From Flaccisagitta enflata (lineage: Eukaryota), in assembly GCA_965153355.1 (NCBI GenBank), contig OZ231126.1, positions 14,322,001-14,386,000 on the forward strand: 64,000 bases of DNA, read 5' to 3'. Shown piece by piece: positions 3,001 to 56,819 of the stretch. The stretch's first letter is position 1. Each line of letters opens with the position of its first letter. The notes beneath the pieces are model-generated. The model was not told the origin of the DNA. It ran no database searches and saw only the letters and a list, made by a program, of their open reading frames with translations. Both the position numbers and the translations under genes were made by a program.

Positions 3001-4418
3001 TTTTCATGCAAAAAGTCCAGCAGCTTTTTTGTTGAAAATGAATTATCATCATTGATCTCCTCGCGCCATTTTTGCAAAATTTCCTTTGACATGAGTTCCT
3101 CAACAAAGGGTACTATTATCCAAGACCCATTGTCCATGTCTATGCCATACTCGGCCAGACATCTCATTGAGGTTTCCAATGTTGTAAGGAATGGCTTGAT
3201 GCAGTCGGTATCAAAGGGTTTGAGGTTCAAAATGTTTTTGACATGTGACTGTTGAACCAATCTGGGTTTTCCAAACATTTCTTTGAGAAATTTTTTGAAA
3301 TGGTCATAGTTGACATCGGTTATGTTGTACCCATCTGCCAGTTTCTTGGCTTCACCAACACAAGCATCCTTTAAGTAAAGGAGTTTTTCCACATTTGCCA
3401 AATCAGTGCGCTTGTCAATGAGAGATTCAAATGAGTTCCAAAATGCTTGGTATTCAGCTGGAGACTTCCCATAAAACTTTGGGATCTCTATTTTGGGTGT
3501 TTTTGCATGATAAGATGTAGATGCAGCAGGAGTTGTAGAGGAAGGAGGGATAGTGTTGGTATGTGCTGAAGGATTGAGAAATTTGTCTGCATTTGTGATG
3601 GCAGTTGAACCTCTTTCAGTCCATGTTTCTCCCAGTTCCAAATCTGCTGCCATAGCATCCTCATCATAAAATGCCCAAATTTCATCATCTTTTTTGTCCA
3701 ACTCTTTCAGAGCCTCTGAGAGGTTGGTTCTGGAATTTGCAACTGCAAATTTTTCGCCAGAATCTATGTCTTTCGTCAATTTGTTGATAGCTTTTGTAAG
3801 TCAGCCACGAACTGACCTTCTTTCCAATTTTTTCGTTTCCAACAGGTCTTTCTGTGCCTGAGGAAGTTTGGATTCACAATTTGTGATAGCGTCCATGGCG
3901 TGAAGATTTGTAGGGGTTGAAAGGGGGTTATCATTTATTTCTTCCTCTTCAGATTTGAATTCAGATTCAGAATCTGAATCTTCAGTTGAAGATAACCGGA
4001 TCTCTTCCCTCTCTTCCTCACTAGGAGGGTGAGGTTCACTTTCGTTCTCTAATTGTCTATACCGTTCCACAAATTCTTCACCTGTTGCAAGTGCACGTAT
4101 AGCAGCAGTTGAGTAATCACCAATTACTTTCGAATGAGCTTCTCGGAGTGATTCAGGGAAGAATTCTACTTCTTCATCAACACAAGAACTCAGTGTGTGA
4201 AATTCTCCTGACAACAATGTTGTTACAGGACTTAGAATGGCTCGCGCAAATTTTCCAGGATATTTTCGTGAATATTTTTCTACTTCTTTTATAAAGTGAT
4301 CAACTTTTTTCTGAGCTTCTTTCCTTTTATTAACCAAATGGTTCAATTTCTGTCTTTCTATCGTAGAAAGAGTTTTTTCCCATTCGGCAATCTTTGTTTT
4401 AGCTTGTATGAGGTCCAT
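1..4418 (-). pseudogene. Disrupted BEL/Pao gag-pol polyprotein
   Basis: ORFs 3801-4418, 1383-3779 and 6-1346 share one frame, separated by single TGA codons (3803-3801, 1385-1383). Motifs: gag (PKIEIPKFYG..YQAFWNSF), three Cys/His knuckles (CFCCDRDHRIFNC, CQKCLMPITKDHFPKTC, CRVCQKPHHTLLH), protease (VIDDGSQTTWI), RT (LYMDD), RNase H (LHIFVDASESAYAAVAY). A 1-nt frameshift near 62 restores FFSEEYECLQKNRAIPRNSRLIQ. Confidence 0.9.
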
Positions 4419-4506
4419 GTAACCGCTAGTTACTGTTAACCATGGCTAAAACAATTTTGAGATCAACTTCCACTATCAAAAATCCAACTTTGGATTATTT
4501 TGATAA

Positions 4507-5134
4507 ATCTCAACCTCTGTGAGATATAAATTGGTCTTTAGACCCTTCTTCCAATTAAGCCCGCCTGGCTTGTTTTTTATCTCAACCCCTGTGAGATATA
4601 AATAGGTCAATTCTTTAAGACCTTCTTTCCAATTAAGCCCGCCTGGCTTATTACTTTATCTCAACCCCTGTGAGATAAAACTGGTCAATATAATTGACTC
4701 AATATACAGTCCAGATTCCCTCAGGAATTTTCAAATTGGTCAATCTCAACACCTGTGAGATAATAATTTTGACCAATATATAGACCAGATTCCCCCAGGA
4801 ATTTTCGTACTGGTCAATCTCAACTCTTGTGAGATTTCAAATTGGTCAAATTCACCACTTCCTATATCACCACTTCCAAAATCACCACTTCTAAATTCAC
4901 CACTTCCTAATTCACCACTTCCAAATTCACCACTTCCAATTTGTGGCTCGTGAAGCAAACTTTTTGTCTCCTTGGGTACTCGCAAAGTACCTTTTCTTCT
5001 TCCAAGTGGCTCGTAAAGCACACCAATGGTTCTGTTCTCCTGCAAGTGACTCGTAAAGTGCACTTGTTCCAATGTGACCACTATAGTCCGCCTGACTATG
5101 TTCCTATGTGATCACAATAGTCCGCCTGACTATT
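4507..5134. repeat. Repeat/hairpin array in the leader of element A
   Basis: ATCTCA-N7-TGAGAT at 4507, 4579, 4658, 4743, 4817; 15-bp AATTCACCACTTCCT-like units ~4849-4938; CGCCT-loop hairpins at 4557, 4634, 5083, 5116. Confidence 0.85.
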
Positions 5135-8990: not shown

Positions 8991-9054
8991 AATTCATACA
9001 GTTATTAGTAGATGGAAACAGTTATGTATTAAGGTAATTTATAGTTATACTTGA

Positions 9055-9240
9055 AACAAGGCCGGATACATGGCCACCAGTTGCGGACGGGTGGGCAGGG
9101 GCGGATATGCGCGTTTTCTAACTTTTTGACTCGTGCTGACGGACGGACCGACAGACCAACAGACCGAAGGACTGACGGACCAAAGGACCGACGGACCGAC
9201 GGACAAAGCCTTTTATAGAGTTGCGTGTCCGCAACTAAAA
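9055..9240 (-). mobile_element. HINE family A variant (AGTTGCGGAC subterminal repeat)
   Basis: Same architecture as 8796-8990; related copies at ~47875-48330 (interrupted) and 61967-62136. Confidence 0.65.
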
Positions 9241-9300
9241 TTCGTAAAGAAGAAAATAAACTTGCGAGAAGGGTGATTTTTTTAGCATCAATATCATAAT

Positions 9301-11383
9301 TAAGGGAGTACGAGTGTAGGTCGAGTCAAAATCTCGCCTCAGATACTCGATTTTCATGTCAGTGGGCCCAAAATATGAGGTTTTCCACCAATTTTGGGGC
9401 TGTCACTCAAAAAATACCCCGCGGATGGCCTCAAAAACCAATTTTCGCATTATTTTTAGCGTTTTTTAAGCATATTTTTCTTAAATAGCTAAAATTTTCC
9501 AAAAATTTTTTTCTTGTACAAACTATTGTTGTTCATGCCATGCCTCAGTAGCATTCTTCATCCTATGAAAAAAAAATAACATGAAATTTTAACTATCAAC
9601 ATGTAAAAAATGATGAAAATTGCAGAAAAACAGGCAAAAACCGGAAACTGTTACTGAAATCAATACATCTAAATATTTAATTAGCTCTTACATATGATAT
9701 TGATAAAACCTGGCAAACTCTAAAGTTAAGTTAGTGATCTGTAATGAAAAAATGGTCAAATAATTCAATCCTAATCAAACAAAGTTCTATGAATTAGCAG
9801 TTCAATCATCAAATTCATAAAATTTGCATAAGAGGGAGAGTTGAATCATAGGTCAGATCATGAATGGTCATGAATTTGTCTTAATCTCTTTTGTGCTACT
9901 GCTCTGGGGTATTAGAGGTGATGAGTTATCCCCAAAGAGCCTCAATGACTTCTCTGTTGAAAAGTGCAAAGACCAAATCTTTTTGCCTTATATTTTTAGC
10001 ATATATAACAGAGGGCCTGATTTCAAGCACGTGTTTCTTTTCAAAGTGATCTACTACTTCTTCAATTGATTAAATCCAATATGTTTTCCCTACATGATCT
10101 TTTGCACAAACTCTCAAAGTGGTGAGGGCTTGAACACAAGTGGTATTTGCTCCTGGTTGTATGATTGGACTAACATAAGGTTCCAACCATCTACTTCCAA
10201 AGTAATAAGAAATTCTTCCTCCTGAAGTGGCCATTGAAAGTCCAGTTCAGGATCAGCTGAAGTGGGTGCCGTATATCTTTTTCACTTTGTTTGAGACTGT
10301 GCTGTGGGTGAATCAAGCATATTAGTTGCTTCATAGACATTATCAACTATGATGAATTATTGATTGCATTGGTCAGCAGAATGTAATGCCAGTAGATTTT
10401 CATACATTTATTAGGAAATAATATTGTATTGCTTGAAGTAAACAAAGTCACTTGGCAACTCAGAAAAAATGATTTATTTGAACTTGATTTCTCTGCACAA
10501 AATGGACTGTTTATTTTACTCCTTCAACATCTTGATTCAATTGTAGCATTTGTGGAATTCATTTTGAGATTTCAATTGAGCATCATATTTATGTTTCTTG
10601 CCATTATTTTGGCACAAGGCCATCGCCTTGTTTTTTGACTGCCCTCTGGCTAGCTTATCTGCTTCTGGATCAGTGACAACAGGTTAGGACTTCATCCGAT
10701 CCTTTTCGGCCCTGGACCAATCTGTCTTAATTTCTGCAACTTCTTTTTGCTTGGCTGGCTGGCTGGCTTTTGCTTGGCTTGCTTAGCTTGTTTGGCTTGC
10801 CATCTTTGAGCATGCATTTAGCTCCCTTTGCAAATGCTTTTTCTGTTAATTCGAGTACCAATCTGTCACTTATGGCCTGAAATGCTACACCTCCTTTTGC
10901 TTTGAGCTGTTATGAGAAGTATCCAAAGTAGTTCTCTCCTGCTTTGTTGTGCACTGGAATTTGTTTAAAGTACATCCTCTGTGGGCATATCTGAAAATGG
11001 CTTCAACTGTGTCTTTCAACGAGTACCTGCTGCTTTTTTTCACAGTATTCCTTACACTCAAGATATGCTAAAACGCTATCTAGCTTGTCAATTGCCTTGC
11101 CTTGCCAATTCTTCCCTCCTTCATCAGCATAGCATCATTTCAACATCCTCTTTGCTCTTCAAATGCACTGAATTCTTAAGCCTTGTTCTATTATTTTGAA
11201 GAATTCTCCATTGCAACAAATTTCAACGCCAGGTCCTTTGAGCACCTAAGTTGTTTGTTACCTTGCTTTTGTCAGAAATGGTTTGTAATGCTGCTTCCAG
11301 TTTGTCCTGGCTAGATTGGCCTTTCAAATTTTCAAAGAAAGAAGATAGATAAAGAGAAAGACAGAGAGAGAGTGAGAGAAAGA

Positions 11384-11459
<76 letters not shown>

Positions 11460-12112
11460 GAGAGTGAGAGTGAGAGGGAAAGAGTGAGAGGGAGAGAAGG
11501 AGAGAGAGAGAAAGAGGAGAGAGAGAAAAGAAAGGAAAGAAAAGAAGGAGAAGGGTGAGAGCGGGTAATTGAAAAAAACTACTGAGCTAGTTTAAATTAA
11601 CAAAATTGAGCTAATATAAAGAGAAATGATTAGAATACTGTTGAGCTTCACTACAGCGCATGCCAAGGGACTGAGCAAAAGTATGCCTCATAGTGAAGCT
11701 GCCTTATTACCACTGTAAAAACAACTACTCTTTCATGAAACCACAGGTTATATGCCCTACAGGAGGGCATACCTTATTAGCGGGTGCACTTTAGCGTTGC
11801 TCTACTGTATATTGAAAACAAATGCTGAATTCCTGTTTTTGAGAAATATTGATCCTGCCTGGTCAAGTCTTTACTTTTTTATGAAGTTGAATTTTAAATG
11901 AATGAATAAACTTTTAAAATCTGAGTAAGTATGAAAAATCGCTTAAAGAATAGTCGAGATTTAGTTTTTGAGCCCATCCACGGGTTTTTTTTTCAACGAC
12001 TGAGTTTTGATTGGTGATTTGCCACTAAGTAGGGTCCCACTCATAGGTTTATTGAGTATCTGAGGCCATTTTTTGAAGTTTGCTCATTTTTGAGAAATCT
12101 CGTACTCCCTTA
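9301..12112. mobile_element. Degenerate cut-and-paste DNA transposon, possibly MULE-like
   Basis: Perfect 14-bp termini TAAGGGAGTACGAG / CTCGTACTCCCTTA continuing as ~170-bp imperfect inverted repeats; flanking direct repeat TCATAAT (9294-9300, 12113-12119). Confidence 0.75.
9900..11330 (-). pseudogene. Probable decayed transposase fragments
   Basis: Broken minus-strand frames, e.g. KQIPVHNKAGENYFGYFS*QLKAKGG (~10965-10890), resembling an N-x3-E-x2-FG catalytic-Glu segment; lies inside the TIR element. Confidence 0.4.
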
Positions 12113-13369: not shown

Positions 13370-14900
<1,531 letters not shown>

Positions 14901-15917: not shown

Positions 15918-16225
15918 TCACATGAGACAGTTGAGACAGTCCGGTGGTCTTTTTCACGTTCACTGTTTTTGTACTTACTTATCGTGGCTCAGTTTGCCTC
16001 AGTTTGCCTCAGCCTGGCTCACAAGCGCAGTAATTTGCTTCTAAATAGCGGAGTAGGAGACGATAGACGAACACCCAGACTTTGCTCGATGTTGTTGTGG
16101 GCAAAACGCGGTAATGGAAGGTAAGATCATTTGGTTAATGTCTAATGTCGTCGGACGCTTTCACGTTTCTTTTTTTCTGTTTTCATCCTCTTTTTGTGCG
16201 CCTTCAAACTTCCCGTGTGTTTTTG

Positions 16226-16483
<258 letters not shown>

Positions 16484-16827
16484 TTTTATTTTCTCCTTGG
16501 TAATCTTCTCTCTACTCAGTTGGAATTCGTTGTATGTTGATGGTGTTGTTAGAAGATAATTCCGTCAGTGCTTCCGCCGACAGCCATGGCCATAATGTTA
16601 CATGGAAATCTAATGGGAAGATGACCTATCAGTTATGACCCTTTCTCGTTGGAACGTTGCTTTAGTATCCGAGTGATGATATTCCCCCGGAGCGTGATGA
16701 CCCAGTTTTTCACCCGTATTCTCTTTCTGCCCGGGCGAATGCAAACCTGGAGACCCGGTTTTGATGCCAGACCATCGATCGATATGCATATGTGCCATAC
16801 TATCTAGGAAATATTCATGAAATAAAC

Positions 16828-20887: not shown

Positions 20888-20892
20888 TACAC

Positions 20893-21682
20893 TGAGAGCG
20901 TTTAGCGTCTAGTTTCTTAGCAAGCTCCTGATGCGTAATCGCGAGAACTGACTCCACTGCGTAGCTGCGCTAATGATTTGGAACGCACACCCGCTTAGAA
21001 CGAATTGTTGAGATGAGCGGTCAAGTTGTCCGCGAAATCAGTCTATTCGTGGAATCCTGACGGACAGAGAAAAGGAAAAAGGTTAGGACAAACTCTGTAC
21101 ATCAATGAAAGATACTTCTGTAAGGCGCCAAAAATGATAAAAAGGTCAAGGACTTACACGGATGTTGTCGAACGGTTTCCAATCTAGGCGCAGGGCAGGG
21201 AAGTCGGGGAAAAAGCATCAAAATCGAGTCTTTAACTGAGATCGTGAAATCGAATGTCAGTAAGAAAGTCAGGGAAGCTACTTTTACTTAACCTGGAAAT
21301 AACAACAAAAATGAATCAAAGCATCACGAGATTTGAAATTATTTGGCAGCAATGGAACAATGATAAATGGAATCGTCACGTCGTGGGAATTCGATAGAGG
21401 GGTCGAAGTCTTTTCTCCTCTAAGCGGTTGAGGAGATATAGTTCATCAATCCTCAACCGGAAGTCAGCGCTTCCGGCGCGCGCGCGCGTTCCTCCCCTTC
21501 CTCCGTCGATCGAAGATCTCTCTCCTTCTCCTCGATTTCCTCCACTCTGCAGTCGAGCAGACGCCATCTTGGATTTTCGGCAGCGAGAGAGCCTCTCCTC
21601 TTCTTCGGGATCCGCGGAGTCGACTGCATCCGATCGAGCGCTTCTTGACCTGGATATGGTGGGGAATGTGCAGAATGTCACA
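20893..21682 (-). repeat. 3' LTR of element B
   Basis: Direct repeat of 32571-33360; one substitution seen by eye (21392 C vs 33070 T). Confidence 0.97.
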
Positions 21683-21694
21683 GTCCCCCCATTT
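21683..21694 (-). promoter_or_regulatory. Polypurine tract of element B
   Basis: Minus strand AAATGGGGGGAC immediately before the TG of the 3' LTR. Confidence 0.8.
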
Positions 21695-22522
21695 GAAATA
21701 TTTGCCAAAAAATTTCAAATCTCGTATCTAACTAGTTTCTTGTCAGGGAATACCGTTCATTTTAAAATTTACAAGCTATGACAACATCCGGGGCTCATCT
21801 CAAAACAAAAATTTTTAAATATTACAAAGACACTATTATAAATATCGTGGATCTCGCGCGGATAAGACGATTCAGAAAATGGGTTCTAGGAGCAGAAACA
21901 CCTACCACCGTCGATCGTCCGGGCTATCGCTACGGTCTGGTTATGAATTGCTCCTCTTGCTCCATTCTGCATCCAGTCTTCATGCTAAACAAAAGAAAAA
22001 GGTAACGATACTAGATCCACGGGAATGATGGACTGAAATAAATAATTAGACTATACGCTAAGTGGCCTATACTAGTGTATATACTATACTAAACTACGTA
22101 CCAACGCCCCGTTAGGATTGTCCATCACTCCAGCACGTACGTCTCTGAAATGTAAGCGGGAGGGGGGGTTCCCCCACACCCGGGATGGGTATGGAGAAAC
22201 GGATTTGGAGAGTTAGAACTGATTCTCATTCCTCAAATCATACGCTTAATATTCTAATTTGGTACAATTGATTCATGAGCAATTCAAAACCCCCCTACCC
22301 CTCGACACTTACGCGGGAGAGTCGCAGGGGGGTCCCCGGTGGGACCCCCTCCCCCGACCGCCCTCTAGAGAAGCGAGGACGGCCGGCCTGTCCGTCACCG
22401 GAAGCATCTCGAGTCGCCATTGGATGATCAACCGCTAGTCTTCCGCGACGACGTGAAACGTCGGTATGATACGCGCGATTGAAGTGGGAAGACGATGGCC
22501 GGGATCATGGCGACGAGACCCT

Positions 22523-24852
22523 CTACTTCCGGCCTTTACCCCTGCCGCCCTTTCCTCCACGATAGGATGGCGCGTCGTCTTTCCTACTGTGGCGTGGAGG
22601 GGGGTTTCTGCCGGAAGGTGGCGCGTGGGTGCTCGACGACGCGGAGTGGCGTTGAGTGCCGGAAGTCGATGGCATCTGTCCGTCGGGCTGAGAGAACTCA
22701 GCGCGGACGCGGTCGGCTTCCTTCTTCGCGTCGGACAGCAGCTGGGCCATCTGAGCAACCTTTGCGTCGTGCTCACCGACAACCTTCATCCTAAAGTTGT
22801 ATTGTTCGATGAGCTTCCTCGCCGATCTGGCTCTATCCACGGCGTGATCGGCAGCGTAGATCGCGCGATCCATCGGAGATGAGTTGGGATAGAAGGCCGC
22901 CGGAAGAATGTCTACAACCTTTTGAATATCCTTCGACCGAGGATGACTTGGCAACTTGATGGCGACAGCCAACATCGTCTCGGTCAGAAGGTCTTCCGGC
23001 GATCGGGGAGGGCGGTGTGAAGGAGAGGAAGCGGATACAGTCGACGTTGACGACCTGTTGGACGTCGACGCATCCCCAGACTTCCTTTTTGGACGACGAT
23101 TTCTCTTCTTTTTGTTGGCGTTTTGCTCCTCTCGTCGCTGTTGGTCGTCGTTGACGGGAGGAGGAGGAGGTGGGGGCAGATTTGCGGCTGCCCCTGCGAG
23201 CGCACCCCCTTGATTGTTCGTTGTCGTCGTCGTTTGAGTTGGGACCCGGATTGGTGAAATGTCACGTGACCGCTGGCGTTGAGGAGGAGGAGGCCGGGGA
23301 GCAGGACCATGTGGTAATCTCGCGGGACCATCCATCACCGTCGATGATAACGATGCGGATGCATCCGGCGGTCCACCCCTGCTCACCCGACGTCTCTTCT
23401 CACTCACTTCGATTTGTAGATTGTTGGCGCCAGCTTTGGCTCGTCGATCGTCTCTCGGATGGTGTTGTGGAGGATCCTGCGTCGCGGGCGTCTGACGCTG
23501 ATCACTGCCACTTCCGGTCGAACGAATAGCCTCCGCGATCCGACGAGCGGCTCCTTCACGTCGTCTTTTTCTCTGATTTGAGGCTTTTCCGCGGGAAATG
23601 TCTCTCAAAGTCCCATTTCCCATGTCCGCCGTTGCTCCAATAGATCTGATGTTGATGATCTTGCACAATTGGAGCGTCTCGCGTGTTTCAACCGTCGCAA
23701 TCTCTCCGTCCTCTTCGACTAATTCGTCTCTGATTATTTGCGTTGGAACATATGCTCTTCGCTCGGCTTGTGGATGAAGAGCATCTCTCTCCGCACGTAA
23801 GCTACGCTGCTTGTCGTGGTACATCGCAGTGTGCTTCCGCTCGATGAGGGCGTCGACTTGGGCGTTGTAGATCTTCACCAATTCGACTGCTTGTTCCTGC
23901 GAGATGGAGGACAGGTCACTGATGTACGGCGGGATCACCAGCGTCGCGTCAGGTGATGCTTGAAACGGCGCCGGCGCGGTCGAGTCTGCGGCCGGCGTTA
24001 CTTGTAACGTCGGCAACTCCACGACCGCCTGCGACGTCTGCGGCGGCGGCGGCAGAATTGGGGGAGCAAGAGAAGGAGCAGTAAGTACCTGTAGGGGCGG
24101 GTCGAGCAACCTCCCCGGGGGGAAGTCCCTCTCCCCTTCCGTCATGTTCGTGAGTGTCCATGTCATCGCCCTCACTGTCATCCTGAGTCTCGTAGTCGTC
24201 ATCGTCGTCGTCGTCGTCAATCGTCAAAGTCTAAGTTGTCAGGGTCATTCAAATCCTGTCGCTCCACTTCTCCTGCTCCGCGTGGCGGCGGGGGGGCGTC
24301 CGTGGTGGAGTCCGACGTCGACTCCCCCATGAGCGCCTCCACTCCCGAGACTGCCGTATCGAAGCTTTCGTTGGCAGCTTGTTCTCTTTTCGCCTTTCTT
24401 GCCGCCCGGAGCGCATCGTCGGCTTGACGACGCGCTTCACCAGCGGCGCGCTTGTCGGCAAAGGCGTTGGCATCGAACGCGTTGAGGGCCCGAGCAGGAA
24501 TAGGGTCCGTAACGGTCCACGCGCCGGAAGACGAGTCGTTGAAGAGATGGCTGACCCCGTCGATGACGTCATCAGCTCCTCCAACGACGGACTGTTGCAA
24601 CCCGCGAAGCCTGCGTTGTTCTCTGAGGGACGCTGCCCTGGCCTCCTGCTCCTGTCTCCTCCTCTTCTTCTCCGGGTCTTTCTTCTCTTCCTCCACTTTC
24701 CTCTTCTCCTCTTCCACCCTCGCCCGCTCCTCTTCCATCCTCCTCGTCTCCTCCTCATGACTCCTCACCAACTCGTCCTGGGCTTGCGCCATTCGCTGCC
24801 TCCTCGCTTCGCGGATCTTGTCCGGCGTGCCATGGTTGTTCTGCTGCGACAT
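22523..24852 (-). pseudogene. Extra ORF3 of element B (~775 codons, two frame breaks), unknown non-env protein
   Basis: ORFs 24217-24852, 23949-24227 and 22523-24220 join; one extra T at ~24220 restores DNLDFDDDDDDDDDYETQ. Coiled-coil N-terminus, acidic tract, Pro-rich and basic clusters, RGG tail; CAG acceptor 11 nt before the ATG. Confidence 0.7.
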
Positions 24853-25396: not shown

Positions 25397-28300
25397 TTAA
25401 TCTGAATCCAGCTCCAATCGGACGATCTTCGACCGATCCTTGAGAACAATCTTGCCGTCGGGGCGTAGGATCTGTGCTTTCCGGACATGACCACCAGATC
25501 CTTCCACTTCGACGACGCGTCCCAAAGACCACTGATGCCGATGAAGCGTCTCGTCAACGATGATGACCAATGCATCTTTTTTAATGTTCACTTCCGACTT
25601 TGTCCATTTACTCCTTGCGTGCAGCAACTGAAGGTATTCGGCGCGCCATACCTTCCAGAAGGCGTCGACGCGGGCCTGTGCGTTTCTCCATCGGCATCTC
25701 GTTCCCACGGCGTCGTTTCCGGTCTCTGGAGGGAGAATAGCTGCCGACGAGTGCGAGAACGTAGACGGATGCAAGATGTTCACCGGCCTCAGCGCCGATG
25801 TATCGCTAGGATCGTCGCTCAAAGGCGTGAGAGGTCGACGGTTGAGAATTCCTTCCACCTCAATCACTGCCGTTTGGAAGACGTCGTAATGGAGCACGTG
25901 ACCGGAAGTAATGGACGCCAAGTGTTTTTTGAAAAGGGATACGACCCTTTCCCATACGCCGCCGTAATGAGGAGTCCCAGGAGGAATGAAGTCCCATTGG
26001 AGTCCATGCTGCTGCAGAGCCACCGTCGACGACGCGTTCCACGACTGCATCTCCTCCTTCATGACGCGATTTGCCCCAACCAGGTTGGTGCCACAGTCTG
26101 ATATGAATCGACGCACCGTTTGCCGTCTCGCCGCGAATCGAATGATGGCATTGATCATTGCCTCTGTGTCCATTTTAAACAAAACCTCCACATGCACCGC
26201 CCTCGAAACCATGCAGGTAAACACCACTGCCCAGACTTTATGGTCCGCCCTGCCGTTCAGTTTCACCAGGAAGTGGCCCATACAGTCAAGTCCCACCTCC
26301 TCGAAGGGCGCTGTTGGAATTAGCCGTCGTTGAGGGAGAGGCGCCATCTGTTGCTTCATAGGATCTTTGAAGTTTCTTTGGCACGTGACGCAATGGTGGA
26401 TGACTGTTTTTACCGCCTGGAGACCTCGAAGAATCCACACAAAGCGTCGCAGTTGGCATAAGACGTGTTTTGGGCCTGCATGAAGATCCTGATGATGAAC
26501 GTGGCGAATCAGAGAAGTGACGTTTGGATCCTTCGATGGGAGAATCATCGGGTATTTCTCATCATGGCCAATATCCGCATTCACCAGTCTGCTCCCGACA
26601 CGCATCGTCCCTTTCTCGTCAACAACCGGATTGTGATGACGTAGAGATTTGCAGATCACTTTGGCGCCGGCGTCATTAATCAGCGGCGTCGTTTTTCCCA
26701 CCGCCTTCAACTTGGTTATCTCTCCATGGAAATGTTTGAACTGGATTGCGTTCAAGCGGCGTTGTGCGTCGTACAACTCAGCCATAGATACAGATGGATT
26801 TGGCAGCGTCGTCGCCGCTGCTCTGGTTTTTGCCTTCACCTTCTGTCTCCATCGCTGCGCGCACTTCACAATCACGGCGATCAAACGCAATTTCGCCACC
26901 CATTCCTGGCGACGGGCTGCCACTGCGTAGGCGAACATTTCCTTCTCCTTCTCCCCCTCCTCTTCTTCCACCGCTTCTGTCGCGACGGCGTTGATTGATG
27001 CCTCCGGCGCCGTCGCAATATTCATTACCGGCCACTCAGATTTGGGAAGGTAGAGAAACTTTGGACCGAAATGGAAGATGTCCCATTTTTCTTTGTCGCC
27101 GGCGTCAATACCCCGCGAACAATAGTCCGCGGGGTTATTCTCCGAATCAACCCACCTCCATTGAGAATCACTTGAGCCGCTGTGGATTTTTGAAAGTCGG
27201 TTTGCGAAGAAGCTCGGACGTTTAGATTTATGGTCGAAAATCATCTTCAGCACCGCCTCTGAATCTGACCAGAGCGTCACCATGTCCTCGGTTACCTTTG
27301 GAATGGTCCTCTTGATGAACAGTTTGAGTTTCACCGCTTTCTCTGCCGCTGTCATTTCTAACCTCGGCACTGAATTGTGGTGCGACGCTTTTGACGCATC
27401 AAGAGGGACGACGTGGGCCTTGGCGCACAAAATGGTAACGCGGATTGTTCCATCCTCATCTTCCACCAACCAATAGCCCACTACTCCAAACCCAGGGATG
27501 GCGGCGTTGCAGAAAATGTGAACTTCTCGTCGAACGGCCTTCACTATGCCCCACTCAATATGGCGCGGAATTTCAATCTGGATCAGCAATGGAGTCGCAG
27601 AGTACCATTTGGCGAAGCGTTTGATCAACGCCTCCTCCATCGTCGAATCCCATCCTTTCTCGGAAGCTCTCGTCAACTGAAGACACCTCCTCCCTTCAAG
27701 GGCGCGGGGCGCTGTGAATCCTAATGGATCATAGTTGTCGGCTTGCATGGAGACCAATTCGCGAGGAGTCGTTGCCACCCTCTTGCATGCTTCTGGATCG
27801 CATCTGAAGATGAAGCAGTCCGTCGACGGCAACCATTGGACCCCCAAGACCTTCGTTGGCTCCTCGAGTTTGGCGCTCAAGTCGACTGCGACGTTCGGAT
27901 CCTCATCCATCACCTCCACCGCGTTCGACTTCCACTTAGTCAGTAAACCGCCGCTCTTCATGGCGATGAGATCTTGCTTCAACTGCAGTGCCTCGTCAAC
28001 TGAATCCGCACCACCAGAGCCGTCATCAACGTAGAAGGCATGTCTTAACATTTCGTAGACATTTTCCGGGAAGTCGGGCTTGATCTTCTCTGCGTGATGG
28101 CGTAAAACATAGCTGGTGACGAGACTCGATGAGACAGATCCAAAGATGTGCGCAAGAAGAGCATCACGACGTTTCTCTCATGCTCTTGTCAGTGAACCAC
28201 ATATATGAACGTGTCCGCGCCTCAGGATGGACGCGGATATTATGAAAGAACGCCTTTATATCGGTCATCAGACCGATTTTATAAAGGCGAAATTTCATAA

Positions 28301-29396
28301 GGACTTCAGTCAAGACGTTCATGATATTCGGGCCTCCAATCAGTAGCTCATTGAGGCAAACGCCGCCAGTTTCCGCGCGTCCATCGTGACAAATCCGCGT
28401 TTTATTTCTTTCCTCCACCACATGGATGGGTAAGTACCAGCGGGGCGATGAGATGCTTGCGTCGTCGTTCTTCGGATCAATCTCAATCGCCACGCCCGTA
28501 TCCACAAATTTGTCCATTTCTTTGAAGACGCGATCGCGGAGGTCATGGTTGTTTGAGAGTTTATACCGGATGCTTTTTGTCCTTTTAATCGTCATCGCCC
28601 GTGCGTTGACAGACTTGATAATCTCGATGATCTTCTCTTTCTCATACCGCCATGGAAGCCCCACGACGTATTTTTGGAGATTCTCGTCGAAGTATATCGT
28701 CTCCATCACCCGCTTCACCGCGCGACGATTCTCTTCAGACTGACCCATTTCTTCCTCTGATACAATGGCGAAGTCATGATAGAACATGCGGTCGAGAGAT
28801 TTGCTCAATGCAACATTATCCACGTGGATTGCGTTAATGACAGCGGTATCGTCCGATCTTCGTCCACTCTTTCCTGCTACAGTCCATCCAAAACCGCATC
28901 TGAAGGCTGTCAAAGATCCTGATGGACCTCTTCTTGCCTCCACAGGCATCGTCGCGTCGTAATGGGCGGCGCCGATGATTAATTGGACAGGACCATTTAC
29001 TTTTGGAAATGGAATGTTGCGAAGATGAGATTGACTTGTGAAGTCGCGTTGGCATGGAGCAATATCCGCCTCACCCGTCAATAACTCTCCCGTTAGTGCG
29101 TTGCTGATGTGGACGTTGTATTCCTCGTCAATCGATGAAAGGATAAAGGACGCCAAAACTTTCTCCTCCACCACTTCACAATTGACCGTATGCACGCGCA
29201 TCAGCATCTTTTTGGTTGGTAAGTCTAATTTTTTAACGATTTGAAGCGATAAAACGTCACGATCCGCACCGCTGTCAATCATCCCCAACACTACGGTGGA
29301 ACGGCCCGTCGAGGCGTTGGTGATTTTTACAGGAACAATCGGTCGCGTGACATCATCCTCCGCGACCACCGTCCTCATCGCGGAGGTGGCAGCGAG
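25397..29396 (-). pseudogene. pol: pol of element B (protease, RT, RNase H, integrase), frameshifted near 28170
   Basis: GMIDSGADRD (protease), FYVDDG (RT), VHIFCNAA (RNase H with catalytic D->N), HHCC zinc motif, GLDCMG / ISDCGTN / GVWERVV (DDE integrase), FWKVWRAEYL C-terminal BEL domain. Confidence 0.93.
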
Positions 29397-32300
29397 TCAC
29401 GCCTCCATCACTCTTCCTTCATCAGATGCAGAGTCATCCGTCGACGAGCTGCTTGGGGGCGCTGGAGGAACGGTTTTGGAGGCGGCAGCGGCTGCGGCTA
29501 ATGCGGCGGCATTCGGCGTCTTGAACGTGATTCCTTCTCCATTCCCTCTCGGCTTGAATTGGCGGTCGTGTAGCAAAGTTGCGTGTCTCTTATTGCAGGA
29601 TGAGCATGTTGGCTTGTCTTTGCAGTCCTGCGCCGAATGGTTTGGGCAGAAACAATGAAAGCATAGACGTTTCTCAGCCAACTTCTTCACACGATCCTCT
29701 GCTGACGGGATGGCTTCTAAAACGTTGCACGAATGGGAATTATGACGACCTCCACAAATATTGCAGATGTCGTTGGGTTGTTGCTTCGGAGGTGAGTTGA
29801 CGAGCTGTTCCTTAAACGTCGCCGGACCAACTGCCGTCGCTGCAACCTTTGTCGGTTTCGGCGCCATGCGTGTTGGTTCTTTGAGGTTGTTGTACGACAC
29901 CCAATGCTTCACCTCCTCGATGAGTTCTTGGAAGCCGTAAGCCGTGCCATGGCGAGCTTGTTCACGCGCGCTCGCTTTCCAATAGTCCGTCGAGATGTGT
30001 GGCACCCTCGCGTTGATGATGCGGCGGATGTGGACGTCACGATCACACTCTCCAGGTACATTCAGCAATTCTGCGACGCTTTCCAGTTTGTACATCGTGC
30101 CAATCAATGCTTGATGGGCTCTCATGTCGTTTTCTGGAACCTTTCCTTTCCTGCAGATGCTGTCGACGGCCGATTGGAATGGGTTGGCGCTCGTGTTGAA
30201 CATCTCGTCCAGGCGTCTCCACAAGGTGCTGTAGACACGGCGCATATTGTGCTCCTTGATGATGAGATGTTGACCGTCGATGATTTCCTTCGCTGGATTC
30301 GCGAAGACGTTGGCCAATTCAGTCACTTTGTCGATTTCGTCTAGCTCGATGTTGGAGGCGGCATTTTCAAATTTGGATTTGGCAATGATATAGTCGATCG
30401 GCTCGAGGTATCCATACGCTTCTCTTGGACGTGCTGCGCGCATTTCCCTCAATCCCACGTCCTTTGCTCTGACGCGGGCGTCGTAGGCGATCGGATTGTC
30501 GATGAAAGAGACCGCGTTCATCCTCTCGGCGAAGGACTGCGAATGCGCGAGGCCGTTTTGCGCGGAGTCACTTCCGGTTTGACGTCTTTGATACGTAGGA
30601 GGCGACGGCGTTGGGGGTGGCGTCTTCCTCGACTTCCGTCGTCGCGAACCCTTCGTCATCGAAGACGTTGTCGACCAGGGGGCGCTGACTCCCGCGTACA
30701 TTTCGGGATGCTTGCGGAGCTGGAAGATCACCCGCGATTTGGCGGACGATGACGGGTGAGCTTGGTGATGGCGGCGTCGATTTGCGCGGTGGAACACGTG
30801 TCTGCAAAACGACGCTGTCCTCCAGGTTGAGATCGCTGATTAATTGTTGGACCCTTGCCATCGCGTCCGCGTGATCCATCGCGTTCTTTTCTTGCTCCGC
30901 TGCATCCTGTCTCGTGCGCAGTTGCTCGTGGAGAGGATGTTCACGTGCGGCTGGGGGTGGCGTCTTGGATGACAGTTGTTTCTGCTGACTTTTCTTTGCG
31001 CCTCTCTCCTCTTCCTCTCCTCTTCCTCTTTCCTTTTCTTCTCTTCCTCCTTTTTCTTTTCTTCGCGTCTTTTCTTCTCCTCCATCCTCTTCCTTTCTTC
31101 CGCGTCTCTTTTGGCCACCGCCTTCCTTCTCTCCTCCTCTGCTTTCCTCTCCGCTTCTTTCTCTTCTTTCTTCCTCTCTCCTTTCTCTCTTTTCCTGTGC
31201 GATCTTGTTCTTCAAGTTCGTCCTCCTTTTTTCCTCCTGCTCCTTTCTCGTCTCCTCTGCCTTCCTTCTCACTTCTTCAGCGTGGATGCGTTGTCTTTCC
31301 TCCTCCTCCTCCTTCTCCTTCTTCCTCCTCTCCTCCTCCTCCCTTCTTTTCCTCTCGTCGATCCCGGCCGTGACCGCGTCTGTCCGGGCAGTAACGGCTG
31401 CGTCTAATGCGATGTTTGCCGTCAGCTGCCGGGCGTTCTCTTCCCGTTGTTGGGATACAGATTGCGAACTGAGACGGAATCTTGTGTTTGCGCGTGCTTC
31501 TCTCGCCACCGAGCGTCGAACTTGGTTGACGTCGTTGACGAGACGTTTGACGACATGCACCATCGCGTCGCCTTGAGCGTCTCTGTCGCCATCAATAATT
31601 GACTGCTGTAGCATGTCGAGAAGATCTTGTGTGGGAGGGGCGCCGCCAACGGCGCCTGGAGGGAGGTCGGCGTCGGCGTTCGGCCATGACGTTTCCATCG
31701 CGTCGTCGGCGTCGTCGCCTTCATCGTCTCTGGCTGACATAAAACGCGACCTCGCTGGCGTCACCGGCGTTGGAGGTTCAAAGTTTATACGTATTTCCTT
31801 GGCGTCTTCTATCGCGCCTGGCGTATGGGGCGGCGCGTTGTGACGTTGCTCCGCTGCATTGAGATTCGCTGCTTCCGTACCGACGGGCAAGTCGTCCTCT
31901 CCCGCGTCTTCATCGTCGCCGGTCACGTTCGGCGTTGATTTGCGTCGTCGTGAGAGGGATTGGACAAAATGCGTCGACGACCCCATCGTCATCTCGAGAG
32001 CGCGTTTTGCTCCAGTCTCTGGTGACTCGTCGTGGATATCGTGGTAAGTCGGCAGGAACAAGTGTGAGGCAAAAGTGTTTTTATCGTGGAAGCATGATTG
32101 GTCCCACAGTTTCCGTACTTCCGTCAATGAGCTTTCGGCCGTCGATAATAGTGACGCCGCTTTGTCGGGATTGTTCGTCGACTCTGCATGTGCGTAAGTC
32201 TTTGTCGTGTTTACAAGTCGCCACGCCGCTAACCACACCTCCTTTCGAAGGCAGTCCATATCTTGGTAAAAGTCCAATATATCGTCATCGTTAAGAGTAT

Positions 32301-32526
32301 CGGCGGTTTTCAACGCCGACATGTAGGCGTTGCGCGTGTTGCGTAGCGCCTTTCGTAATCCGCGAAGCGTCGTGGCCACGGGGTCCATTGCGCCCGCGTA
32401 GACGGACGAGTCGGAAACGACGGACACGCAGTCGGTTGGTCGAAAGGCCTTTCTGCGTTGATTGGGCAGCGAAGGTGGCGGCATTGACATCGCGTCGGCG
32501 TTGGCGTTGTTGTTGGCGGTCGACAT
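29397..32526 (-). pseudogene. gag: gag of element B (~1040 codons, frameshifted)
   Basis: ORFs 30568-32526 and 29397-30797; three BEL-type knuckles CNICGGRHNSHSC, CFHCFCPNHSAQDC, CSSCNKRHATLLH; E/K/R-rich helical segment. Confidence 0.88.
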
Positions 32527-32558
32527 CGTTGACGTTGCGTGGATCGTTGATGGTTTTT

Positions 32559-32570
32559 GATTCCACGAAT
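32559..32570 (-). promoter_or_regulatory. Non-tRNA primer-binding position ATTCGTGGAATC (candidate self-priming site)
   Basis: Abuts the LTR-terminal CA; exact reverse complement of the sense 12-mer GATTCCACGAAT at 32734-32723. Confidence 0.7.
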
Positions 32571-33360
32571 TGAGAGCGTTTAGCGTCTAGTTTCTTAGCA
32601 AGCTCCTGATGCGTAATCGCGAGAACTGACTCCACTGCGTAGCTGCGCTAATGATTTGGAACGCACACCCGCTTAGAACGAATTGTTGAGATGAGCGGTC
32701 AAGTTGTCCGCGAAATCAGTCTATTCGTGGAATCCTGACGGACAGAGAAAAGGAAAAAGGTTAGGACAAACTCTGTACATCAATGAAAGATACTTCTGTA
32801 AGGCGCCAAAAATGATAAAAAGGTCAAGGACTTACACGGATGTTGTCGAACGGTTTCCAATCTAGGCGCAGGGCAGGGAAGTCGGGGAAAAAGCATCAAA
32901 ATCGAGTCTTTAACTGAGATCGTGAAATCGAATGTCAGTAAGAAAGTCAGGGAAGCTACTTTTACTTAACCTGGAAATAACAACAAAAATGAATCAAAGC
33001 ATCACGAGATTTGAAATTATTTGGCAGCAATGGAACAATGATAAATGGAATCGTCACGTCGTGGGAATTTGATAGAGGGGTCGAAGTCTTTTCTCCTCTA
33101 AGCGGTTGAGGAGATATAGTTCATCAATCCTCAACCGGAAGTCAGCGCTTCCGGCGCGCGCGCGCGTTCCTCCCCTTCCTCCGTCGATCGAAGATCTCTC
33201 TCCTTCTCCTCGATTTCCTCCACTCTGCAGTCGAGCAGACGCCATCTTGGATTTTCGGCAGCGAGAGAGCCTCTCCTCTTCTTCGGGATCCGCGGAGTCG
33301 ACTGCATCCGATCGAGCGCTTCTTGACCTGGATATGGTGGGGAATGTGCAGAATGTCACA
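32571..33360 (-). repeat. 5' LTR of element B
   Basis: Direct repeat of 20893-21682; GC-rich U3 with CCGGAAG and AAGATGGCG motifs, Inr-like TCAGTT at 32917-32912, candidate intron 32835-32735. Confidence 0.97.
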
Positions 33361-34401
33361 TACACAAACAGGAAATTTTGGTTTCACTTTACTTTTTGCT
33401 TGTGATATAGATTTAAAATAAAAAGATATTATTGAGATTTTAGTTAATTATTTTTGATATAATTTATAAGGAGTCTGAACAATGTTTTTAAACCCAGAAT
33501 ACTAATAATGGTTTCATAACAATCAGAAATAGAAATTGAATGTTTGAATTCCTCAGAAAAATAGTGAACAAAATTAAAAAATATTGTTAGGTGAAATTAT
33601 ATCATGTCCTCAGTAAAGAAAATTTTGCATTTCTAAGATCATGGCCCTTTTCTTATATGTTTTTAAAAAGAGGCCATGTTCTTGGAAATACAAATTTTTT
33701 TTATTTCTATGCACCTAACAGGAATGAGATGACAAAGTATAATTTTCTATAAAAAATCTTCCTTTCTGTACCTTTTTTCAATATATTATGTACATTAAAT
33801 TTGTATGTCAGAGATTAACTATGCAAAAGTTTATTGTTCAACACTTAAAAAATGTTTTTTCAACAAAAAAAATTATAAAAAAATGATATAAAAAATATCT
33901 AAAAAAATTGAAATGAACCATGAAATTTCTTTTTCCCTTACACTGCGTCATATGTTCTTCTTTACATGTCAGGCTGATCGTATCGATATTCTCCTTACAG
34001 CATAACAAATTGTAACATATAAAAAAATATATAGAAAGACAAATTGATGAACCCACCATTTAAAAGAAAGTCTCCGATATTTGCTGTCATCATTCTTAAA
34101 GATGGGTGGCTAAACTTATGTCCCGCCCCTGATATTTCTTGCATCAATCTCCACAGGCTCATCACTCAGTGCTATGTATAATAGTGACGAGCCATCCAGT
34201 CCACGGCTTGTCTTACACATCGTTCACGTTCTTTCCTCAACCTCAAAATGTGGTTTATCGTTCCCAGGGTATTCGCAAAACCTTGATTAACCCTTTTTCT
34301 CCTCCGAAGGCGATCAGGCGATAGTCCTAATGAGGTACGCAGGACTGAGAGTGATGCCATGGTATCGGCGACGTGCCTTCACTATGCCTGGGCCCTGACT
34401 G

Positions 34402-36188: not shown

Positions 36189-36388
<200 letters not shown>

Positions 36389-36631
36389 TAGACAGACAGA
36401 CAGTCACATAGGTCACTACAACTCTTTCGTAATAAATTACAAAACTAAGTTATTTCAAACGATTTGTTTTCGTTGTCGAAACAAGCCCAGGCGGGCAACT
36501 GGATGCGTCATCTGCGTGATATTAGAAGAGGCGTAACGGACGGACGGACGGACGGACGGACGGACGGACGGACGGACGGATGGACTGACGGACCGACGGA
36601 CGGACGGACGGACGGACAGACCCTCTTATAG

Positions 36632-41942: not shown

Positions 41943-42042
41943 TCACCGTTGTTTCACATATAAAATCGTTTCATTTCGTTTCTCATTTTTCTCCTTTCCT
42001 AATTTTCTGCTTCTTTGATTTCCTTCTTACCTTTCTCTTCAT

Positions 42043-42160
<118 letters not shown>

Positions 42161-44495
42161 TTGCCGTTTTTGATGTCACTGTTTCAAATTTTTATATCGT
42201 TGTTGTTGTTGTCGATGTCATTGTCGTTGGCGTCGCTGGAGCTTTTGATTGTCTTGTTCTTTATATTGTGTCTCAAAAGGAAAGTAAGTTGTTTTCTTTG
42301 AACTTTCTTTGCTTGCTTCAAAGAAGCAATGATTTTTTTTATCTTTTCTTTTTACTTTTAACTTTTCCTTGGAACAAAAATAAACGAGGAGAGAAAAAAA
42401 AACGAGAGAAAAAAAAACGAGAGAGAAAAAAACGGTAAAATGGAAGAAAAACTGAGGCTACGTGACGTCATCATGGATGGAAACTGAAGCGGAAGGAGTT
42501 AATGTGAGAGTAAAAAGAGAGGAGGGGAAAAGAGGAGGAAGAGGAGGGAGGAGGAAGAGGAAGAAGAAGAAGAAGAGCGACGCGAAGAGATGAAGAGGTG
42601 AAAGAGAAAGAGGCTAGAAAGAGAGAAGATAGAAACAAAGAGAGAAGGAGAGAAAGAAGAGAGGAGGTAAGTCCAAAAACGGATGAGGGCGGAAAGAAAG
42701 GAGGCTTAGAGGAAGTGATGAATGATAAGGATGACGCGGGCAACGCGACACCCGGCAGCGACGATGGCGGTGGCGGTGAGGAAGTGTTGGTGGTAGTGAC
42801 AGAGAGTGTTGGTGGTGGTGAAGGAGGTGACAAAATGGGGACGGCGGTAACGAAGTGGGAGCGGAGGTGGTGCGGGCGATACTGGAGATGGGGGATAAGG
42901 AGGAGACAGCGGAGACGAAAAAACAGGCGACGGTCTACAAATGCCCTTGGTATTCCCAGGATGTAATCTGGGACGGTAACTCCGTATCCCCGGTGAATGA
43001 ATATTTAATTACTAGAGACGACGCAAACAGAATGAAGTAACGACAGCAGATGGCGATGAACTCATTAACGACCGACGGGTAAAAGTAATGAACAACGCCG
43101 GTCGGCAACGCTACGACAAAGCGAGGAAGCGGCGCGCGCCGGCGGAACGGAAAGTTCATCTGTGCGAGGTCGTTGATTCCTCATTTAGTCGCTCGTTGGC
43201 GCGACGTGAATGGCGTGTTTCGCTTTAATATATAGCCACTTACATTCCCTTTTAGTGTACGCCATAGAGGACGCACAACATTAAGTACATGAACAACAAA
43301 TTAAGGCAAGACAGCGATTGGCGAAACCTGGTGGCGGCCCTGGATTTCAGCTGCTTTTGGTAACGCGCAGGCTTATCTCTATTTGAGGCCGTGTCCGTTT
43401 ATATACTGCTGCGGTTGCGTGCTTCGCATAGCAAAAAATTTGATTTTCTTCTTGTCCCGCTAACCCAATATGGAGTGAAAAAAATCATGAAGATGACCGT
43501 TTTCCTTTTCTCAAAATTCCTTCATCTTCCGTTTTTGTTTTAGCCTTAAAGTTTACTCAGATTTCCCAGAATTCAGCAAAATCCTGTGTAGTCTTGTTAC
43601 AAAAAGAACAATTGTTAGTTTTTGAAAACCATGATTTTTGTGAAAATAAATCAAAATATCAGAGCATAAGTTAAGTAAGAGCTTGTGAAAAAGCAGGTTA
43701 ACACTTCTCTAAAGAGCAGAAGTTTACAAAAGTTAATTCAGAGAAGATCAGCATACTTTTTTATCCCACTGCAATATACAAATTAGGCTCTCAAAAACAA
43801 TTTTCTAAAAAACGGAAGATGAACAATTTTTGATAAAACAAAAATGGTAAGGGTCCTAAAATTGCCCACTCCGCATTAGGTAAAGAGGATGAAAAGAAAT
43901 AAGCAACTTTTGCTATGTGAAGCACCCAACTGCTGCGGTCTGCGGCGGTGTGTCTGCACCTGTCTGAAAGTTTTACGATTATCCAAGAGTAAGGTCTCGA
44001 TAATGCTTGAGCATTACTATCATCTACCCAACCCCGAGGAGCTGACAACGACCGTGAATGCACCATGTTTTTTCACTTTGACTTTTCGCGTTATGCAAAG
44101 AAAGAGGGAACAAGGCCGGATACACGGCAACCTAAGTCGCGTGCCAGTGGGCAGGGATAACAGAGGTAAAACAAGTAGAAAAATCCTTATGACCTACGGA
44201 CGGGCAGATAGATCAAAAAGTGGTTTGGAGACGCGTAGAACACGACCAAAAAAAGTCGATTGCAAGAAAGGTCTAAGATTACGCCATTCATTGTAAGCAA
44301 ATCTTATGACACACACATATAGACTGGAGCAAACATTTCCAAACTTGTTTAAATATACCAAATGGAACTTTTTTCCTGTGCACAATTAAAGACCACGAAA
44401 AGTTATATCGAGAATAAACAAGCTGGTGTCAAGTTTCTATCAAGCCGTCCTCAATATTCTTCAGGTTTTCTGAATGAACCTCGAAGTCTTAAAAC

Positions 44496-55599: not shown

Positions 55600-56819
55600 T
55601 ACTACACACAACTACATAACTTCATACTACATACTTAACATACTACATACTTACTACATACTTACATACTACATACTTACATACTTACATACTTACATAC
55701 TTACATACTTACATACTTACATACTTACCTAATTACATACTTACATATTTACATACTTGCATACATACATACTTACATATTCACTACATACTTACATACA
55801 TACTACATACTTACATACTTACATACTTCCATACATACATACATACATACATACATACATACATACATACATACATACATACATACATACATACATACAT
55901 ACTTACTTACATACTTACATACTTACATATTTACATACATACTTACATACTTACATACTTACATACCTACATACTTACTTACATACTTACATACTTACAT
56001 ACTTACCTACATACTCGCATACTTACATACTTACTTACATACTTACATACATACTTACTTACATACTTACATACTTACCTACATACTCACATACTTACAT
56101 ACTTACATACTTACATACTTACATATTTACATACTTACATACTTACCTACATACTCACATACTTACATACTTACATACATACTTACATACATACTTACAT
56201 ACTTACTTACATACTTACATACTTACATACTTACTTACATACTTACATACTTACCTACATACTCACATACTTACATACTTACGTACTTACATACTTACTT
56301 ACATACTTACATACTTACATACTTACATACTTACATACTTACATACTTACCTACATACTCACATACTTACATACTTAAGTACTTACATACATACTTACAT
56401 ACTTACTTACTTACATACTTACATACTTACATACTCACATACCTACATACTTACATATATACTTACATACTTACATACTTACATACTTACATACTTACAT
56501 ACTTACTTACATACTTACTTACTTACTTACATACTTACATACTTACATACTTACATACTTACATACTTACATACTTACCTACATACTCACATACTTACAT
56601 ACTTACATACATACTTACTTACATACTTACATACTTACATACTTGCTTACATACTTACATACTTACCTACATACTCACATACTTACATACTTACATACTT
56701 ACATACGTACTTACATACTTACTGACATACTTACATACTTACATACTTACATACTTACATACTTACCTACATACTCACATACTTACATACTTACGTACTT
56801 ACATACTAGCATACATACT
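55600..56819. repeat. (ATACTTAC)n/(ACAT)n satellite, ~1.2 kb; short related tract at ~59848-59960
   Basis: Direct reading. Confidence 0.95.

Follow-up and report, generated by a model that had tools for sequence, protein, structure and literature searches.

The only well-studied way in which LTR retroelements do without tRNA priming is self-priming. The Tf1 element makes use of an 11-nt primer segment and of RNase H cleavage. As set out in the parts of the article drawn on here, Tf1 and Tf2 of Schizosaccharomyces pombe and Tj1 of S. japonicus, which belong to the Tf1/sushi group of Ty3/gypsy elements, involve no tRNA, and a site right after their 5' LTR is complementary to a 5' LTR segment that forms, as proposed or as shown, the 5' end of the mRNA (PMC4600332). 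The same parts treat self-priming in Tf1 as demonstrated, and extend it as a proposal to Tj1 and to elements "from fungi to vertebrates" (PMC4600332).

Neumann et al. 2019, in the sections used here, predict self-priming in the plant lineages Tcn1 (Ty3/gypsy) and TAR (Ty1/copia; Houba and Osr-1), a self-primer being recognised by 10 bp or more of the 5' LTR that are the complement of bases beginning 0-5 bp after the LTR; no BEL/Pao case appears in these sections (PMC6317226). Going by these sections, the Tcn1 and TAR predictions imply that self-priming arose in more than one superfamily, and the account given in a first-pass annotation of the DNA studied here, which names Ty3/gypsy chromoviruses, has to be corrected to include the Ty1/copia lineage TAR (PMC6317226). 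A BEL/Pao case would therefore be the third superfamily, not the second.

The Belpaoviridae (Semotivirus) are described as tRNA-primed in the ICTV profile, which bears out what the annotation had said of BEL/Pao elements in general. A survey of BEL/Pao makes no mention of PBS, tRNA or priming (PMC3118150), and our literature search returned no report that joins self-priming with BEL/Pao, Belpaoviridae or Semotivirus, although supplementary tables could hold cases.

Here we describe an element that resembles Tf1, Tf2 and Tj1 in that its post-LTR site is complementary to a segment of the 5' LTR, with arms of similar length that lie within ~150 nt of each other. It differs from them in being a BEL/Pao element (Peptidase_A17, DUF5641) of an animal and not a fungal host, and its transcript start and RNase H cut are predictions. 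With the plant Tcn1 and TAR lineages, which are gypsy and copia elements, it shares the kind of in silico evidence and the criterion applied, as these are presented in the sections cited above.

Results

A recently inserted BEL/Pao element

The window, by which we mean the whole stretch of 64,000 nt of Flaccisagitta enflata DNA analysed here, contains a 12.4-kb LTR retrotransposon on the minus strand, with the following boundaries and genes:

33361-33365, minus strand: target-site duplication GTGTA, upstream copy, 5 bp
32571-33360, minus strand: 5' LTR, TG..CA, 790 nt, with a single mismatch against the 3' LTR, at 33070
30568-32526, minus strand: gag ORF, first part, with a frame change near 30641-30646 relative to the continuous 1049-aa relative P0001
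25397-29378, minus strand: pol, with protease/RT at 28164-29378 and Peptidase_A17, integrase and DUF5641 at 25397-28051
21683-21694, minus strand: polypurine tract AAATGGGGGGAC, directly 5' of the 3' LTR
20893-21682, minus strand: 3' LTR, 790 nt, from the LTR comparison
20888-20892, minus strand: target-site duplication GTGTA, downstream copy, 5 bp

On the minus strand the LTRs start with TGTGACATTC and end with CGCTCTCA. The GTGTA duplication on both sides and the polypurine tract make the LTR boundaries firm. Given that the LTRs are 99.9% identical (the one mismatch is that at 33070) and that the duplication is intact, the insertion appears to be recent and the priming of this family recently working.

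The element is BEL/Pao by its proteins, an assignment already made in the first-pass annotation and now borne out by Pfam, which places Peptidase_A17, Integrase_H2C2, rve and DUF5641 in the ORF at 25397-28051. The Pol homologs have the identical domain set plus RVT_1. Pao-type Pol domains, LTRs, a target duplication and a polypurine tract, the marks of BEL/Pao (Belpaoviridae), are all present, and the Pfam domains of Pol are not those of the Ty3/gypsy-type Pol, usually with a chromodomain integrase, that characterises the Tf1/sushi clade. In its gene content, TG..CA LTRs, 5-bp duplication and polypurine tract the element is like the canonical Belpaoviridae (Semotivirus).

Outside the two frame changes, gag and pol share one frame, with a stop at 29397-29399 between them. 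The change in pol lies near 28140-28159, as judged against the continuous 1332-aa relative P0004, which is 95-99% identical to the window copy in Pol; P0001 is 85-94% identical to it in Gag. The window copy may no longer be autonomous, or the assembly may contain indel errors.

Two further ORFs (211 and 565 aa; 22523-24852, minus strand) separate pol from the 3' LTR, and the related element L001, introduced below, has an open third ORF after pol (9034-10560). Pfam gave no family for the ORFs at 22523-24220 and 24217-24852 or for the third ORF of L001, and the post-pol ORFs of the two elements have no mutual match. These ORFs may be envelope-like or accessory genes. They add to the length of the window element, which at 12.4 kb exceeds the 4.2-10 kb quoted for Belpaoviridae.

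The window also holds part of a second, distant BEL/Pao element (element A; 1-4418, minus strand), which is cut by the window start and whose proteins are 24-30% identical. The region upstream of it (4420-5100) consists of repeated units around "tatctcacaggggttgagat" hairpins, and no clear LTR end was found there. Long microsatellites with units of two, three or four nucleotides (AG, AC, GTT, ACAG, ACAT/ACTT) are unusually frequent in the window, for instance at 11326-11614, 13913-14321, 16176-16535, 36244-36450, 42037-42170 and 55646-56250.

Pairing of the 5' LTR with the first leader bases

Two short segments on the minus strand are central to what follows:

32559-32570, minus strand: post-LTR arm ATTCGTGGAATC, candidate primer-binding site, from the first base after the LTR
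32723-32734, minus strand: LTR arm GATTCCACGAAT, candidate self-primer, at LTR positions 627-638 and with its 3' LTR copy at 21045-21056

With no gap after the 5' LTR, ATTCGTGGAATC (32570-32559) is the exact complement of GATTCCACGAAT (32734-32723). This confirms the observation from which the analysis started, namely a post-LTR 12-mer with an exact complement in the LTR and a copy of that complement in the 3' LTR. The duplex is exactly 12 bp long, with 12/12 Watson-Crick pairs and zero G-U pairs, and it ends sharply, since the outer G32735/A32558 and the inner A32722/A32571 are both mismatches. Base 32570, which comes first after the terminal CA, is the partner of the 3' base in the LTR 12-mer, and extension would therefore begin at the last base of U5. 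The geometry that had been claimed is thus the one found, and it fits priming at the LTR edge. Set against the published threshold for a self-primer (at least 10 nt, starting 0-5 nt after the LTR), the element has 12 nt at offset 0.

The first-pass annotation had put the chance of such a match at 5e-5. When the LTR was shuffled 20000 times with dinucleotides preserved, a complement of at least 12 nt anchored at the first post-LTR base appeared in 6/20000 shuffles (3e-4), so that the match is rare, as proposed, and somewhat commoner by chance than claimed. It is also the longest of only four exact inverted repeats of at least 9 nt in 32400-33400. Three RNA runs and one DNA run gave contigs, 90-99% alike, in which the LTR/post-LTR junction is unbroken, and the junction is for that reason a feature of the family and not of one aberrant copy.

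When the RNA from A32736 to the binding site is folded, the 12-bp duplex closes both the minimum free energy (MFE) structure and the centroid (z = -1.97, with 5/200 shuffles as stable), and an equivalent closing duplex is present in the fold of L001. RNA folds of wider stretches were not significant (z = -0.5, -0.24 and -0.6), and it is the closing duplex alone that is notable. The complementarity is real and very probably not due to chance.

A parallel layout in a relative

The window element itself was found in marine metagenomes and metatranscriptomes from nine studies. Three Gag homologs were recovered, at 98%, at 85%, and at 53% identity, the last from a sister family, and none of the Gag relatives came from viral_contigs, metagenome_contigs or genome_contigs. 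The Pol homologs number 64, of which ~35 are 34-57% identical; nearly all come from marine assemblies, and none from viral_contigs. A scan of metagenome contigs with a Pol profile gave 23 loci. Only one of these, L001, reaches upstream of gag; the other 22 lack the 5' end or are themselves distant.

L001 is 10560 nt long and its Pol is 43% identical to that of the window element. It begins with the end of an ORF (1-265), followed by a purine run GGGGAGGGGGAG (389-400) and then by TGATGGGATTCTACACC..CCCCCACC, which resembles the start of the window element's LTR. The contig thus looks like a wrap-around assembly, and its LTR end is inferred from the CA and from a start like a polypurine tract, not from a second LTR.

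The LTRs of the two elements align only in one block around the LTR arm, comprising the pyrimidine run, TCAGGATT and ~60 nt beyond (local alignment), as expected of a core promoter or R region. A global alignment of the leaders (MAFFT) was uninformative and was set aside; the local alignment around the arm alone holds. Directly after the A of the conserved TCAGGATT motif, L001 has a 9-nt arm, GGATTAAAT (1751-1759), whose exact complement ATTTAATCC (1889-1897) is preceded directly by ..TTTTACA, an LTR-like CA end. The arms are spaced 138 nt from start to start, compared with 164 nt in the window element. When the 514 nt from the arm to the gag ATG were shuffled 20000 times, complements of 9 nt or more turned up anywhere before the ATG in 256/20000 shuffles, and with a preceding CA as well in 11/20000.

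The bases that pair are not the same in the two elements. The arms read GATT-CCACG-AAT and ATT-CGTGG-AATC in the window element and GGATT-AAAT and ATTT-AATCC in L001; compared with L001, the window element has five additional bases in one arm, matched in the other by their complement. The first-pass annotation had proposed that the two segments should be compared among related families for co-variation that keeps them complementary, and this comparison came out positive: pairing is kept with changed bases in the one relative (1/1) that has its 5' region, L001, which makes two elements in total. Across the window and the 23 loci there are 21 CAGGATT sites, and only the two 5' LTR sites are followed within 500 nt by a complement of 8 nt or more; the 3' LTR copy and the 18 other sites are not.

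Primer-binding sites of the tRNA type

As claimed in the annotation, the post-LTR sequence does not begin with TGG: the sole TGG within the first 30 post-LTR bases is at offset 5 (32565). Nuclear tRNAs have G-C-rich acceptor stems, mostly with a G1-C72 pair. Read as a tRNA site, the TGG at 32565 would imply an acceptor stem that is 6/7 A-U, with an A1-U72 pair and a U discriminator, which is atypical of nuclear tRNAs and makes a canonical tRNA site unlikely. No tRNA genes were found in the window or in 25 loci.

Two distant BEL elements served as controls. In L024 the LTRs are of the TG..CA form, the duplication is CTCCC and TGGTCCTTCGAGCCGG follows the LTR at a distance of 3 bases, and the LTR complement to its leader is at most 6 nt at offsets 0-11 and 4 nt at offset 0. 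In L014, a TGG-type TGGTGTTGGGCGGAC stands four bases after the ..CCA end. L014, like L013, is distant (26-27%), and its terminal repeat includes coding sequence, a sign of assembly wrap-around, so that it was used as a tRNA-site control only. Because L024 and L014 show GC-balanced TGG sites, the sites of ordinary BEL/Pao elements are easily recognised; nothing resembling them is present in the window element. The description of Belpaoviridae as tRNA-primed fits L024 and L014 and does not seem to fit the window element or L001.

L024 (with L025) is a complete BEL/Pao element with 599-nt LTRs and a 741-nt insertion in the 5' LTR. It lies on an 18.8-kb contig filed as a Rubritalea MAG, beside a 44-nt tandem array, and the contig is evidently animal DNA binned into a bacterial genome.

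Candidate start and poly(A) motifs around the LTR arm

Two motifs overlap the edges of the LTR arm:

32731-32738, minus strand: TCAGGATT after a pyrimidine run, conserved with L001 1748-1755 (alignment)
32720-32725, minus strand: AATAGA, a weak hexamer resembling a poly(A) signal that overlaps the end of the LTR arm (read from the sequence)

The first, TCAGGATT, could be an initiator-like start, with the A at 32736, or a motif resembling a 3' splice site. TCAGGA agrees with the initiator TCA(G/T)T(T/C), the consensus of Drosophila, at only 4/6 positions, and the position of the conserved motif at the 5' edge of the arm is compatible with a transcript start. GGACA at +28..+32 of A32736 fits the consensus of a downstream promoter element; this candidate was dropped, as L001 has AAAAC there. 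Contig ends at 32733 (RNA, X16) and 32738 (DNA, X3) were likewise rejected as evidence on the start site. They are uninformative because the DNA contig also stops there, next to an indel at 32747, and all of the run data are assembled contigs, which cannot show RNA ends.

AATAGA may be a usable variant of the poly(A) signal. L001 has ATTAAA at the equivalent place, and hexamers that overlap the 3' end of the arm in this way would give a short R of 20-35 nt. There is no AATAAA or ATTAAA in the window LTR, in which the only similar hexamer is AGTAAA at LTR position 395. L001 carries a textbook TATATA (1171) and AATAAA (1221) 580 nt upstream of the arm, and these would put the arm deep in U5. A contig from oligo-dT RNA (X17, record 19) covers 32970 to 32521, the LTR arm included, without a break, which could reflect a start further upstream, or assembly that merged a 3' U3-R with a 5' R-U5.

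Complements near the polypurine tract

Other long-range complements were observed in both elements. In the window element they lie in the ~120 nt upstream of the polypurine tract:

21703-21803, minus strand: pre-PPT segment, complementary to the LTR at three nested sites (LTR 335-357, 514-524 and 665-675)

The complements are 11 nt to LTR 665-675, 11 nt to 514-524 and 22/23 nt to 335-357, and their partners in the 3' LTR are at 21008-21018, 21159-21169 and 21326-21348 (minus strand), respectively. In a fold of 826 nt of RNA all three helices are in both the MFE structure and the centroid (z = -2.3, with 1/20 shuffles as stable). The counterpart in L001 is a complement of 10 nt (240-251 against 1358-1367 and 1376-1385). 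Comparable arrangements between the 3' end and the 5' leader are CYC5/CYC3 in Ty1 and the bipartite site in Ty3. By analogy, the helices between the pre-PPT segment and the LTR could hold the 3' end of the RNA near the 5' leader for the first strand transfer. Should the LTR sites with which the segment pairs lie in the 5' leader, this would speak for a start upstream of the 12-mer.

The presumed LTR of L001 also contains nested exact inverted repeats, at 1149-1164/1636-1651 (16 nt) and 1231-1242/1537-1548 (12 nt). The downstream arm of the 16-nt repeat ends at GTGAGT, and the upstream arm of the 12-nt repeat ends 16 nt after AATAAA.

Discussion

A self-priming reading of the pairing

In our view the best reading of this layout is that a BEL/Pao lineage starts its minus-strand DNA by self-priming of the Tf1 type, a reading that we regard as about evenly balanced between right and wrong. 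In this scenario, the LTR would contain the transcription start, at or beside the conserved TCAGGATT (A32736 or G32734), and the first 12-14 nt of the RNA would fold back across ~150 nt of R-U5 to form a duplex with the 12 nt after the LTR. Cleavage after U32723 by the RNase H of the element would then place a 3' OH across from the first post-LTR base, and from it reverse transcriptase could copy U5 and R, beginning at the LTR edge.

Plus-strand strong-stop synthesis would later copy the attached primer, and the binding site would thus be rewritten in every cycle. Pairing that is perfect and sharply ending, and extra bases that match in both arms, would follow from such rewriting of the site from its primer. 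Since this plus-strand strong-stop synthesis would run to the end of the primer, the 5' end of the RNA should be found where the complementarity has its sharp 5' edge, an expectation that derives from the Tf1 model.

Alternative explanations

Alternatively, the two arms may be the halves of a conserved long-range RNA stem that joins U5 to the first bases of the leader and has a role in packaging, in dimerisation, in the control of translation or in masking the binding site. The real primer would then be a host RNA, such as a tRNA that has a U discriminator and anneals from the TGG (32565 in the window element, 1899 in L001). We consider this rather unlikely. Retroviral U5-leader or U5-IR stems are long-range pairings of this kind around the binding site. 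The window element is like them in pairing U5 with the leader around the place of that site, but the retroviral stems flank the tRNA site, whereas here the downstream arm occupies its place.

The possibility of a tRNA with a U discriminator and a masking stem arises because CGTGGA is kept just after the LTR in both elements. However, the bases after the TGG are entirely different in the two, the TGG of L001 is 10 nt from the LTR end, and the acceptor stem implied in the window element is the A-U-rich one described above. A structure under selection would co-vary too, and an arm inside U5 would fit both the upstream TATATA and AATAAA of L001 and the X17 contig that runs through the arm; the other long-range complements in the element make long stems seem a habit of the family. 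Against this, there is no reason for a structural stem to start exactly at the first post-LTR base in both elements, and the absence of G-U pairs over 21 bp (both elements together) is not expected of one. Ordinary BEL elements, moreover, have clear GC-balanced TGG sites.

A second alternative is that the pyrimidine run and CAG/G (the slash marks the splice junction) are a real 3' splice or trans-splice acceptor, the pairing serving to regulate leader splicing and not priming. The sequence directly before the arm is a good 3' splice-site consensus in both elements, and donor-like GT sites lie upstream, CAG/GTTAAGT at 32971/32970 in the window element and ACG/GTGAGT at 1650/1651 in L001. Yet no joint across 32970-32735 was found in the assembled contigs of three RNA runs, in which rare forms can be missed, and both LTRs retain the supposed intron, so that the RNA that was copied must have been unspliced. 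Splicing would also leave the element without any primer site, and we regard this explanation as improbable.

That the match arose by chance, the true priming site being degenerate or unrecognised, is very improbable: scanning very many LTR elements will yield matches at the 3e-4 level and the window copy, set beside its relatives, has shifted frame in gag as well as in pol, but the match recurs at the homologous place in L001 (the 11/20000 shuffles above), the near-identical LTRs and intact target duplication indicate a recent, working replication cycle, and the junction is identical in diverged copies from four runs.

Implications for BEL/Pao elements

Self-priming is a plausible reading of these sequences, and one that would be new for the BEL/Pao superfamily. 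A broader and more tentative version, which we would sooner doubt than accept, is that the whole radiation of marine-animal BEL/Pao elements represented by the ~35 Pol homologs at 34-57% identity has abandoned tRNA priming and primes from its own cap-proximal 10-14 nt, with a PBS that is rewritten in each cycle. Self-priming in this radiation would be a third independent origin among the superfamilies of LTR retroelements. In that case the nested complements between the pre-PPT segment and the LTR may belong to the same arrangement, keeping the RNA's 3' end close to the start site for the first strand transfer.

There is a wider reason for interest in such a switch. Self-priming frees an element from the host tRNA supply and from host defence based on tRNA fragments. 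It has been demonstrated only in gypsy elements of fission yeast, and predicted in gypsy and copia lineages. If the reading proposed here is true, the window element and L001 would be a natural pair in which the rule that the site is copied from the primer can be read from sequence, and the description of the family Belpaoviridae would need to change. A self-primed BEL/Pao clade would mean that the switch away from tRNA priming has occurred in all three superfamilies of LTR retrotransposons.
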